In this document: positions 5,801-6,601 of the stretch, one piece after another
Layout: every line of letters begins with the position of its first letter
Position numbering within the stretch: position 1 is the stretch's first letter
Virus record (IMG/VR): IMGVR_UViG_2703718820_000019
Direction: 5' to 3' (one strand)
Length of the DNA stretch: 29,860 nt
From: a virus
Lineage: Duplodnaviria; Heunggongvirae; Uroviricota; Caudoviricetes
The notes under the pieces: model-generated
Database searches by the model: none
Told to the model about the DNA's origin: nothing
Seen by the model: the letters and a program-made list of their open reading frames with translations, nothing else
Position numbers and translations under genes: made by a program

Positions 5801-6252
5801 TGGCAAAAATTCACGAGGTAAAGCTGCACGCAAAATATTTCGACCTTGTACTGGAAGGAAAGAAACGCGCAGAGTTTCGGAAAAATGACCGTAATTATGA
5901 GCGTGGGGACACGTTGATTTTGCATGAATGGGTGCAGGGTGTGTATACGGGGCGAAAGGTTGAAGCCCGGATAACAGATGTTACTGACCTGTCAGACTGG
6001 CTGGAAGATTATGTCTTGCTAAGTATTGAGCGGCTTAATACAGGCGAATATGAGATTGTGAACTGGAAAGAACTTAGTGAGCGTGGTCTGGTATTCAGAA
6101 TTAATCATGAAATTATGCATCAGCTCGGCCTTGCTGTTATGTATGAATCAGAGACGGGGATGTCTGGCGGGGCAATGGTAGCCACGGATGGAGCATGGAA
6201 CTATTCAGATGAACAGATGGAGCGTGCAAAGCAAAACGGGTGGCTTGGATAA
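5800..6252 (+). CDS. ASCH/DUF3850-like (PUA-fold) domain protein with a C-terminal extension of unknown function; cargo at the P2 tin/old position
   Basis: ATG at 5800 (ATGATG overlapping the A stop TGA; SD GGAG 7 nt upstream). The N-terminal ~75 aa carry the ASCH signature GxKxxExR (EGKKRAEFRKNDR...GD) and the DUF3850-like pattern HEVKLHAKYFDLVLEGKK. The C-terminal ~75 aa have no recognisable motif. Not a homologue of P2 orf91, tin or old. Confidence 0.75.
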   Translation: MAKIHEVKLHAKYFDLVLEGKKRAEFRKNDRNYERGDTLILHEWVQGVYTGRKVEARITDVTDLSDWLEDYVLLSIERLNTGEYEIVNWKELSERGLVFRINHEIMHQLGLAVMYESETGMSGGAMVATDGAWNYSDEQMERAKQNGWLG

Positions 6253-6458
6253 TGCACAGAATACCAGGCGAGATACCGCACCATAAAACTAAAAATATCA
6301 AGCTGATGGCTATTGTTCAGCGTTTACAGCGGATTATGGTCAACGAAAATCTGACGCCCGATGAGCTGGTCGGGTGTGCCGAAATAGTACGGGATAATTA
6401 CGGGCGGCTTAACTATATCGGTCAGTCCAGAGTTGCGCCACCACCACGCAGACTATAG
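6252..6458 (+). CDS. Small hypothetical protein translationally coupled to the ASCH-like gene
   Basis: ATG at 6252 overlapping the upstream stop (TAATG); 68 aa, no recognisable domain. The listed ORF start at 6240 is a GTG. Confidence 0.45.
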   Translation: MHRIPGEIPHHKTKNIKLMAIVQRLQRIMVNENLTPDELVGCAEIVRDNYGRLNYIGQSRVAPPPRRL

Positions 6459-6601
6459 AGAACGCCGCCAGTCGTGAAACTTGTTTTCAGGGCTGGCGGG
6501 GTTGAACAACGAGCGTAGCGAGGCGTTAGCTGGTTATCAGATTGACTCCTGGTATTATTGGCGCATAGCGCGGCCAGTAACCACAATGAAGCCGACTCAA
6601 A

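Follow-up and report, generated by a model that had tools for sequence, protein, structure and literature searches.

The window analysed here, a stretch of 29,860 nucleotides of viral DNA, comes from a P2-like phage and carries, in order, gpA, an ASCH gene, a small ORF, a conserved structured element, a terminator, cos, Q and P. The position of cos at 6787-6805 places the element within the gpA-cos interval, and the layout is the one by which the P2 gpA-cos cargo hotspot is defined: a variable region running from replication gene A to portal gene Q, beside cos. This variable locus, also called the TO region (tin/old), is the same one that Rousset et al., 2022 (PMC9122126) defined as a hotspot; they described its protein cargo, treated the interval as a reservoir of anti-phage systems, speculated about cos-end recombination and left as an open question how the cargo is exchanged, and their paper makes no mention of a structured border element. 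The features between gpA and cos are the following:

5797-6252, + strand: gene for an ASCH/DUF3850 + DUF7415 protein, homologue of P2 orf91 (Pfam, PHROG 1812, annotation of related phages)
6252-6458, + strand: gene for a 68-aa protein of PHROG 11386 (profile match, homologues, dN/dS)
6461-6503, + strand: hairpin H1 of the conserved element (covariation, G·U strand bias)
6504-6529, + strand: 3' domain of the element, conserved in sequence, with the proposed hairpin H2 (motif count, covariance-model match)
6530-6598, no strand assigned: scar left by deleted cargo (alignment with SEN1, Midge and KpST147)
6599-6630, + strand: Rho-independent terminator of the rightward (early) operon (stem and T-run, alignment with t95b of phage 186)
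6787-6805, + strand: cos cohesive-end sequence GGCGAGGCGGGGAAAGCAC (identical to the annotated P2 cosR)

The 68-aa reading frame runs from an ATG at 6252 to a TAG at 6456-6458 and, as originally predicted, overlaps the end of the ASCH gene, sharing one base with its TAA (TAATG). Its product matches phrog_11386 with E = 5e-39, residues 1-67 lying on positions 1-68 of the 69 in the profile. Conservation of the frame is extensive: there are 179 clusters of homologues at 64-96% identity, beginning at the same MHR and aligning with 24 invariant columns, and the median dN/dS is 0.05. The segment 6252-6458 is thus a genuine small accessory gene, translated as part of a compact operon with gpA and the ASCH gene. 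An AF2 model (pLDDT 77) has helices at residues 10-31 and 36-59, so the protein is predicted to be a two-helix hairpin; a fold search of it against the PDB gave no match, and it represents a small conserved protein family that has no assigned function. The ASCH protein matches DUF3850 (6e-18), DUF7415 (1e-13) and ASCH (5e-11) in Pfam and PHROG 1812 at 3e-80, and related phages annotate the product as a DUF3850 protein.

The overlap of the two genes had been taken as a sign of stoichiometric co-expression, as in a toxin/antitoxin or sensor/effector pair, followed downstream by a regulatory small RNA. The overlapping stop and start codons, and the fact that both genes adjoin a known defence hotspot, are what speak for such a module, which we consider very improbable. 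The start of the ASCH gene at 5797 overlaps the stop codon of gpA in the same manner (ATGA), so overlaps of this type are a general style of the operon. The two genes do not occur together obligatorily, either: the small ORF is found without the ASCH gene in about 29 loci and the ASCH gene without the small ORF in about 8, some of these loci being truncated; in 186-like phages the small ORF stands behind its own leader of about 130 nt with no ASCH gene, and in SEN1 it follows DinI. Since the small ORF occurs without its supposed partner, pairing of the toxin/antitoxin type is unsupported, and these co-occurrence data already largely refute the module. Searches of both proteins for toxin, PADLOC and NCBIfam families gave no significant match (the best was to PADLOC, for the ASCH protein, at E = 0.024), and Pfam found only the three ASCH-protein domains in the pair, with no recognisable toxin, antitoxin or defence domain. 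The structured element, moreover, is independent of the ORF, phage 186 having the element without it, and half of the "structured" stretch turns out to be a deletion scar.

Between the small ORF and the end of the operon lie some 140 nt that are non-coding and fold well. The RNA fold of 6455-6640 has an energy of -72 kcal/mol (z = -4.5) and the DNA fold of 6455-6533 one of -19.1 kcal/mol (z = -4.6); in each case none of 200 shuffles was as good. To this extent the prediction of about 145 nt of structured sequence with a functional-looking 3' element was borne out, but the conserved element between ORF and terminator is confined to 6461-6529, the remainder (6530-6598) being a cargo remnant. The predicted stem CCGCCAG/CTGGCGG is likewise present, at 6465-6471 and 6493-6499 (one or two nt from where it had been placed), but instead of an imperfect long-range stem its arms make up the lower, GC-rich part of a continuous hairpin of about 18 bp at 6461-6503. 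The terminator foreseen behind the structured region is there as well, with its stem at 6599-6623 and a T-run to about 6630.

The 69 nt at 6461-6529, directly behind the stop codon of the small ORF, constitute a conserved, strand-specific two-hairpin element. H1, of about 18 bp, is rich in GC at its base (AAC.CCGCCAG... / ...CTGGCGG.GTT) and in A/T at its apex; between copies its sequence varies while the pairing is kept. Compensatory changes are seen in 13 of its 18 pairs and 92.7% of cells are paired, values reached by none of 500 shuffles, with controls in which the pairing was slid giving 26-41% paired. The strand follows from the wobble pairs, 187 G·U(T) pairs on the + strand vs 23 on the reverse complement (11.5% of the element's pairs), and from the mean folding energy, -26.1 kcal/mol on the + strand vs -18.2, the + strand being better in 87 of 93 variants. 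The 3' domain is conserved in sequence, as GAACAAC-GAGC-nnn-GCGAGGCGTTAG, and conservation stops exactly at G6529; the exact motif is found in at least 120 IMG/VR contigs. For it we propose a second hairpin, H2, of the form AAC[AA]CGAGC-nnn-GCGAG[GC]GTT with tandem G·A pairs. The G·A/A·G pairs are swapped for U-A/C-G in 5 of 53 variants, AAC/GTT becomes GAC/GTC in locus L150, and in plasmid pPrY2001 the internal loop is larger on both sides. A covariance model of the element scores 90.1 bits (E 2e-22) on 6455-6533, the only copy in the window.

Rfam gave no match in the whole window at gathering thresholds and only noise at E<=10 (mir-6096 with 13.5 bits where the threshold is 100, COG2908 with 12.8 where it is 58.7), and searches of the literature by words and by sequence strings found no description of the motif. 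H1 is not an intrinsic terminator: on the + strand it is followed by GAACAAC, with no T-run, and the terminator scan did not list it. Inspection by eye also disposed of several further readings: an H1-loop/GCGAG pseudoknot is not kept across variants, coding on the minus strand clashes with the covariation pattern, and the 3' domain lacks the features expected of a boxA/nut-like or Ter-like sequence, a DnaA-box hairpin, a sigma-70 promoter or a kink-turn.

On its left side the gpA-cos cargo hotspot of P2-like phages has the element as a fixed boundary. gpA lies upstream of it on the same strand in all of 108 loci, at distances of 213 to 2833 nt, and the portal gene downstream on the opposite strand in all of 102, at 318 to 3644 nt. 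The identity of the neighbouring gene is irrelevant: the element is preceded by the small ORF, DinI/tum, orf97 and others, and also by the 5' end of a Fic gene on the minus strand, while more than 20 different and unrelated sequences abut exactly behind its terminal GCGTTAG. The left edge is as sharp as the right, and in most phage loci a stop codon precedes H1 by 0-6 nt. An ATG follows GCGTTAG by 2-4 nt in at least two cargo families, with the GAGG of the element as ribosome-binding site. In about 17 of 100 loci the small-ORF module is flanked, in the manner of a cassette, by two copies roughly 405 nt apart, and variants of the element seem to move together with the gene that precedes them.

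The hotspot of the window holds no cargo and is a nearly empty version. The first 20 nt behind the element (6530-6549, CTGGTTATCAGATTGACTCC) are the 3' end of a minus-strand cargo gene that is intact in phage Midge and in a Klebsiella phage, and the same 20-mer directly abuts the terminator in three other loci (L047, L061 and L115); 6550-6598 are the tail of a 33-aa hydrophobic ORF together with the pre-terminator spacer. The segment 6530-6598 is accordingly the scar of deleted cargo, and the distance from element to terminator, 72 nt here, is 25 nt in empty loci and about 758 nt where the cargo is intact. The terminator at 6599-6630 is that of the operon. Its 9-bp stem with five GC pairs and its TTTTTTT tail are those of an intrinsic terminator, it aligns with the annotated t95b of phage 186, and its sequence CCGGCA...GCCGGTTT is kept in more than 40 loci. 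In phage 186 the element likewise lies where the SOS operon ends, between the orf97 stop codon and t95b, in the empty arrangement; of these two features the 186 record marks the terminator alone. What sets the window apart is its 72-nt scar and a different gene upstream.

The element is not limited to phages. By BLAST, the copy of the window finds 116 phage and 24 plasmid records and the variant of pPrY2001 finds 294 plasmid records, and in four unrelated types of plasmid a copy stands next to the origin of replication. An IncX8 plasmid has the order element, DnaA box TTATCCACA, AT-rich stretch, 22-bp iterons and rep; in Providencia Rep_3 plasmids the element is followed after 20 nt by TTGTCCACA and an AT-rich stretch with GATC in it; in a RepL/NikA-relaxase plasmid it lies about 100 nt ahead of the repeats that precede repL; and some 220 pKYM-like Rep_1 rolling-circle plasmids of 2.1 kb carry it. 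In three theta-type plasmids it adjoins DnaA box, iteron and rep layouts. In the pKYM-like plasmid pVR50G it is on the strand opposite to rep, and a pC194-like origin sequence ahead of rep and an overall G+T excess hint that the other strand may be the displaced one; if so, the element would not be a rolling-circle lagging-strand origin there. BLAST did not find it in IncF plasmids, nor was a second copy found in the first 100 kb of pPrY2001, for which BLAST indicates two places. P2 itself lacks the element and yet replicates well, so it is accessory rather than essential.

The presence of the element at plasmid origins as well as in phages points to a replication-linked function common to both, and its conservation across P2-like phages and beside these origins makes it probably a replication signal. 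More specifically, and tentatively, since we put this at somewhat less than an even chance, it may be a signal in single-stranded DNA for the priming of complementary-strand synthesis. It would act on the + strand, probably the one that gpA nicks and displaces in rolling-circle replication; for P2 this assignment is based on annotation convention and base skew, the nick site being annotated on the + strand with the element about 1.1 kb downstream of the ori position, and the + strand being G-rich at fourfold sites regardless of gene orientation. Once displaced, the element could fold into a stable hairpin with a conserved tail for protein recognition, stay free of SSB and recruit the priming or helicase-loading machinery for the complementary strand, as a single-strand initiation (ssi) or single-strand-origin-like signal would. 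As a portable signal it would do the same in plasmids, at the border of the origin of replication; in phages, cargo would gather on both sides of it because it is the sole constrained island in a dispensable interval. Strand-specific stable structure in single-stranded DNA, the mark of ssi and single-strand origin (sso) sequences, is found here in the DNA fold, the covariation and the wobble pairs on one strand; the likeness to these is one of form and apparently of placement, rather than of demonstrated sequence similarity. Like the ssi or primosome assembly sites of plasmids and of phages with single-stranded DNA, among them the n'/PriA site of the phiX174 type and, in R1, R100 and R6K, "G sites" of the G4 type, the element is short, non-coding and orientation-dependent, with stable hairpins on one strand, lies next to replication origins or on a strand probably displaced in rolling-circle replication, and is dispensable, widespread and portable between replicons. 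It differs in residing in a temperate phage with double-stranded DNA, and from the G4 type in having no conserved 5'-CTG-3' primer start 3' of its hairpin: CTG follows it in the window and in Midge-type loci but is absent in many others (TTCTACC, CCGGTCAT, AAAGCAT in pPrY2001). With the single-strand origins of rolling-circle plasmids (ssoA, ssoU and others) it shares the character of an exchangeable, strand- and orientation-specific, structured non-coding module that lies at module borders of a rolling-circle replicon. An sso, however, spans 150-300 nt just upstream of the nick site, while the element has about 70 nt and lies some 1 kb downstream of the P2 ori, with no conserved CS-6 or RS_B motifs.

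The main rival, somewhat less likely than the single-strand signal, is a function at the RNA level. The element would then belong to the 3' UTR or an intercistronic region of the rightward operon. H1, just behind a stop codon, would stop 3' exonucleases or provide a processing site of the RNase III type, and H2 would hide the GAGG ribosome-binding site, thereby setting how well the following gene is translated. It is always co-oriented with the upstream operon, and where a stop codon lies just before H1 (0-6 nt in most phage loci) and an ATG shortly past GCGTTAG it is certainly transcribed and could act as RNA; the ORFs that start at this 2-4 nt spacing (UmuD'-like and "MGxxDxNYQVVYRGE") have GAGG about 8 nt before the ATG. 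Its proportion of G·U pairs is typical of RNA, the RNA fold is stable at the z-score given above, and at empty sites the terminator 25 nt farther on would make the 3' end a compact structure of about 130 nt. But the element is also kept behind the divergent minus-strand gene, and in pPrY2001 behind a hairpin and T-run that look like a terminator by eye. A consensus scan of two plasmids (L149 and L145) found no sigma-70-like promoter upstream of it, the sole promoter-like site on its strand in L145 lying downstream. An RNA role leaves the copies at plasmid origins unaccounted for, there is no Rfam match, and a search of the phage for a sequence complementary to the conserved tail found none. 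The last of these points, with the plasmid copies and the lack of cargo at the hotspot of the window, also weakens the original suggestion of a small RNA or cargo regulator.

Recombination at the element would explain the hotspot, cargo cassettes being inserted or exchanged at an integron attC-like site or at a hairpin-plus-cleavage site of a HUH enzyme; Nilsson et al. (2004) reportedly argued for site-specific insertion in the gpA-cos region. The exact junction of more than 20 unrelated sequences with GCGTTAG, the equally sharp left edge, the paired copies bracketing a small-ORF module and the apparent movement of variants with the upstream gene all fit this. So does the comparison with attC, which shares with the element a hairpin, fixed in structure and variable in sequence, that closes gene cassettes on their 3' side, a following ORF within a few bases, strand-asymmetric folding and a GTTRRRY-like sequence, here GTTGAAC. 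We nonetheless regard it as improbable. attC sites are recombined through the bottom strand, and the element folds better on the coding strand. Only AAC...GTT is kept at the base of H1, with AAC alone in place of an RYYYAAC partner box; the paired R''/R' and L''/L' boxes and the extrahelical bases are absent, and the cargo junction lies 25 nt past GTTGAAC, not at its G|TT crossover. No IntI-type or other dedicated recombinase accompanies the element, the phage loci having P2 genes (gpA, portal, terminase) beside it with no IntI; the right-hand border of the cargo is not a second copy, the nick sequence of the P2 gpA origin (GCGCCTCGGAGTCCTGTCAA) is unrelated to the junction, and the place of the element near DnaA box, iteron and rep layouts goes unexplained. 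One further reading is about equally doubtful: the element may be an unrecognised portable single-strand replication signal, common to P2-like phages and four or more kinds of plasmid replicon, and its own action on displaced single-stranded DNA, by priming, helicase loading or strand switching, may be what creates the very sharp cargo junction at G6529. Defence systems in the P2 hotspot would then be exchanged by a mechanism tied to the initiation of the lagging strand rather than to cos ends or homology in the flanks.

The analysis defines a precise, conserved and structured border element for the P2 hotspot, together with a covariance model, and when prophages are annotated the element can serve as a fixed point from which hotspot cargo is delimited exactly. 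As a priming signal it would be a new family of the ssi type; as an RNA or a recombination site it would still be an uncatalogued, widespread motif. Two smaller resemblances were also considered. Terminator t95a of phage 186 is an ordinary terminator, not a diverged copy of the element. An 8-mer, GCGAGGCG, is common to the element and cos; since the element of 186 is unchanged while, by eye, its cos-type end appears to differ, the sharing is treated as a coincidence.

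The window comes from a P2-like (Peduovirus) phage or prophage, with gene A, the ASCH gene, the small ORF, non-coding sequence, a terminator and cos following one another in this order:

3473-5800, gene A, replication endonuclease (gpA)
5797-6252, ASCH/DUF3850 gene, homologue of P2 orf91, directly after gene A
6252-6458, small ORF encoding 68 aa, after the ASCH gene
6599-6623, terminator, 9-bp stem and T-run
6787-6805, cos cohesive end, identical to P2 cosR
6975-8009, portal gene Q, strand opposite to the gene A operon
8009-9811, terminase gene P, strand opposite to the gene A operon

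Several of these parts are already known. The interval between gpA and cos is the published P2 hotspot, a variable locus of P2-like phages carrying many defence systems (PMC9122126) and occupied by tin and old in P2; the terminator, present as predicted, is t95b of phage 186; and the small ORF belongs to a PHROG family. P2-like and 186-like phages share a highly conserved segment between terminator and cos (6640-6790 in the window), in which TGCATGCA/GCATGC repeats abound; presumably this is the part of cos that terminase recognises.

The non-coding sequence is indeed structured, folding far better than its shuffles (z about -4.5 as RNA and -4.6 as DNA). The complementary heptamers of the original prediction exist, at 6465-6471 and 6493-6499 (1-2 nt from the positions first given), but they are the base of a single continuous hairpin of ~18 bp and not a separate long-range stem. 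The stretch has three parts: a conserved element (6461-6529), a scar and the terminator. Similarity to many P2-like phages ends abruptly at ~6529-6530, and positions 6461-6530 are ~87% identical in distant relatives with unrelated flanking genes (186, EtG, BIS20, PSP3 and Klebsiella phages), almost all of whose records leave the element without annotation. Rfam has no family for it, and the hotspot paper (PMC9122126) makes no mention of it. A literature text search did not find its sequence in print. Nilsson et al. (2004) may already have reported a stem-loop or repeat here.

An exact-motif search of IMG/VR (GGGTTGAACAAC-N7-GCGAGGCGTTAG) gave at least 120 loci, and the motif occurs in 15 species-representative genomes, all Enterobacterales. 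Among the matches listed, the 45 nt 5' of the motif come in 93 different versions, and in all of them the first hairpin, H1 (6461-6503 in the window), forms with 15-20 bp, a GC-rich base, an AAC/GTT closing and an A-rich/T-rich apex. In an alignment of 53 distinct copies, 92.7% of cells are paired in H1 and 13 of the 18 pairs show compensatory double changes, values attained by none of 500 shuffles; sliding the partner by 1-3 columns lowered pairing to 26-41%. The folding is strongly strand-specific: over the 93 versions the + strand makes 187 G·U pairs and the reverse complement 23, mean folding energies are -26.1 and -18.2 kcal/mol, respectively, and the + strand has the more stable fold in 87. 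The structure is thus kept by selection, and on one strand only. Covariation, together with conservation across unrelated flanks, in practice rules out a functionless, hitch-hiking sequence.

The 3' domain (6504-6529) is conserved at the sequence level. Here we propose, with limited support, a second hairpin H2, AAC[AA]CGAGC-nnn-GCGAG[GC]GTT, with tandem G·A pairs. U-A/C-G replaces G·A/A·G in 5 of 53 copies, though the copies compared were picked by the H2 sequence itself and this support is not independent; a Providencia plasmid copy has an internal loop larger on both sides, and a Proteus plasmid copy has GAC/GTC for AAC/GTT. A covariance model of the whole element, R1, detects a single copy in the window, scoring 90.1 bits at 6455-6533. 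Weak R1 matches (14-15.5 bits, E 0.03-0.07) lie at the same place within the 5' part of gene A of the window, P2 and Wphi (3556-3624, 1357-1425 and 1857-1925, respectively), and are probably an unrelated hairpin.

The 69 nt past the element are the scar. One piece of it, CTGGTTATCAGATTGACTCC, corresponds to the 3' terminus of a cargo gene on the minus strand, which Midge and a Klebsiella phage have whole; another, TGGTATTATTGGCGCATAGCGCGGCCAGTAACC, is left from the end of a hydrophobic 33-aa ORF that in SEN1, Midge and this Klebsiella phage precedes the terminator. The spacing of element and terminator, 72 nt in the window, is 25 nt in 186 and the other "empty" loci (about 20 in all) and ~758 nt with the whole cargo; from the scar and this spacing, the hotspot of the window is almost empty through deletion. 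The 33-aa ORF (MLSLVYENPWTTVFLLIVASMCLNSVIGALRGQ) lies intact just before the operon terminator at ~2500-2600 in the SEN1 locus, ~2700-2800 in that of Midge and 2683-2784 in that of the Klebsiella phage, and its last ~11 codons, with TAG in frame, are left at 6550-6583; it could encode a small membrane peptide or be a type-I-toxin-like gene.

Among the matches listed, gpA lies 5' of the element on the same strand in 108 of 108 loci and the portal gene 3' on the opposite strand in 102 of 102, at distances differing by kilobases on both sides. The preceding genes vary (small ORF, DinI/tum, orf97 and others); in most loci a stop codon lies 0-6 nt 5' of H1, and in one prophage a minus-strand Fic gene adjoins the element upstream by its 5' end. 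More than 20 unrelated sequences start directly past GCGTTAG among the matches listed, some being ORFs with ATG 2-4 nt beyond it, for which the GAGG of the element would serve as ribosome-binding site; one downstream minus-strand gene takes its stop codon from the complement of TTA in the element. Two copies ~405 nt apart flank the small-ORF module in about 17 of 100 loci among the matches listed, the upstream one keeping H1 while its 3' domain decays. Two cargo families begin at this point. ORFs starting MGFPSPAQDYVE (L010, L021, L050, L072, L082, L091, L109, L117 and L125), 2-4 nt past GCGTTAG, by eye resemble UmuD from its self-cleavage point on, and would supply an SOS-type phage operon with UmuD'-like protein ready-made; the others (L014, L019, L031, L036, L037, L038, L083 and L116) have the conserved N-terminus MG(G/K/N)xDxNYQ(V/I)VYRGE.

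On plasmids without P2 genes, the element always adjoins the replication region. In an IncX8 Proteus plasmid ~85 nt separate it from a perfect DnaA box, beyond which come an AT-rich stretch, 22-bp iterons (six or seven) and rep. In Providencia/Proteus Rep_3 plasmids a terminator-like hairpin with a T-run precedes it, and TTGTCCACA follows 20 nt on, together with an AT-rich stretch that contains GATC, 5' of rep. The direct repeats preceding repL are ~100 nt 3' of it in a 3.7-kb Klebsiella NikA/relaxase/RepL plasmid. About 220 Col(BS512) plasmids of 2.1 kb from E. coli and Shigella, encoding a Rep_1 rolling-circle initiator, have it in a structured non-coding region that folds better on the element's strand, opposite to the plasmid-wide trend. 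By size, host and Rep family these are taken to be of the type of pKYM, a Shigella sonnei rolling-circle plasmid (PMC4439123). A pC194-like origin 5' of rep and overall base skew hint that the displaced strand of the pKYM-like plasmid is not the element's, yet its only exact CTTGATA (AACTTGATA, as in phiX174) is on the element's strand, ~150-230 nt downstream of the element. A consensus scan of pVR50G, one of the 2.1-kb Rep_1 plasmids, and the 3.7-kb RepL plasmid gave no sigma-70-like promoter 5' of the element. The remaining plasmid matches are integrated P2-like prophages, such as that of the IncC resistance plasmid pEC316_KPC (3481-5172), with a minus-strand, retron-like reverse transcriptase directly past the element.

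In pVR50G, AACTTGATA, which equals the nick motif of phiX174, is at 1911-1903 on the element's strand, and a ~20-bp long-range inverted repeat (AGAGCCAGCGGCAGGCTGAGG/CCTGAGCCTGCCGCTGGCTCT; 1940-2089 joined to 1-60) surrounds another inverted repeat together with direct repeats of CATTATCCTCAG, right beside the element. Two further hairpins adjoining the element, GGTGGATGG...CCATCCACC and GGAACCCCAAAGGGGACCCCC, form a module common to the 2.1-kb Rep_1 plasmids (181-300 in pVR50G) and the RepL plasmid (~2270-2400), folding better in pVR50G on the strand opposite to the element's; it may be an oriT or the true single-strand origin.

The element thus keeps a fixed orientation to the replication gene, is indifferent to the genes beside it and adjoins replication origins in unrelated replicons. 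By analogy, it is quite possibly, if at something short of even odds, a single-strand replication signal acting as single-stranded DNA. Rolling-circle replication of P2-type phages starts from a gpA nick in ori. The + strand is probably the displaced one, since fourfold-degenerate sites are G-rich on it in genes of both orientations and the P2 record annotates the nick site there; the element is on this strand, ~1.1 kb 3' of the ori position. There it would be exposed and fold, its stable hairpin and conserved tail on SSB-coated DNA serving as a signal like an ssi (single-strand initiation signal) or primosome assembly site. Such sites likewise have a stable hairpin with a conserved tail, and reportedly, from work of Masai/Arai and Nomura, ssi-type signals typically adjoin plasmid origins. 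Weakening the model, no resemblance of the element to any characterised ssi was seen, a conserved CTG start is absent 3' of it, and the indications as to the displaced strand conflict in the pKYM-like plasmid. It is dispensable, as R1 finds no copy in the A-to-cos region of P2. Cumulative GC skew climbs almost monotonically over 1-29860, consistent with unidirectional rolling-circle replication displacing the + strand.

The stop codons adjoining H1, the ATGs just downstream and the G·U content would also suit an RNA element, combining a 3'-end protecting or processing hairpin with a structure masking the ribosome-binding site; we think this somewhat less likely; it would leave unexplained the plasmid-origin settings and the copies behind a terminator-like hairpin and a divergent gene. 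Improbable by comparison is a recombination site, to which the razor-sharp junctions and cassette-like, two-copy arrangement might point: recombinase and attC box architecture are both absent, and the best-folding strand is the wrong one.

The small ORF (ATG 6252 to TAG 6458) is present as originally predicted, its ATG sharing one base with the TAA of the ASCH gene and so overlapping it. Its sequence conservation in relatives marks it as a real gene: the match to PHROG 11386 spans the full length (5e-39), with homologues in 179 clusters from Enterobacterales (63-83 aa, 64-96% identity; no Pfam domain in any), and dN/dS is ~0.03-0.07 (median 0.05) against orthologues 74-83% identical in DNA. 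The family has 24 invariant columns within the first ~50 residues, then a variable proline/arginine-rich tail; the AlphaFold model is a two-helix hairpin (pLDDT 77) with no match in the PDB, and PADLOC and NCBIfam gave nothing. The suggested toxin/antitoxin or sensor/effector pairing is unsupported, because among the loci collected here each gene occurs without the other and the ATGA overlap at the gpA/ASCH junction indicates that overlapping stops and starts are ordinary packing of this operon. In SEN1 and other 186-like phages, the small ORF follows the DinI/tum gene with its own ~130-nt leader. The original hypothesis was thus mostly wrong, though its coordinates contain a widespread, well-supported structured element bordering an important defence hotspot, with real uncertainty as to mechanism. 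In Wphi (4419-4613 and 4560-4770), the annotated "gp92" is the orf91/ASCH protein's frameshifted C-terminus (83% identical to its residues 107-150) and the copy of the small ORF is broken by a stop, a state that is either a pseudogene or a mistake in the old sequence.
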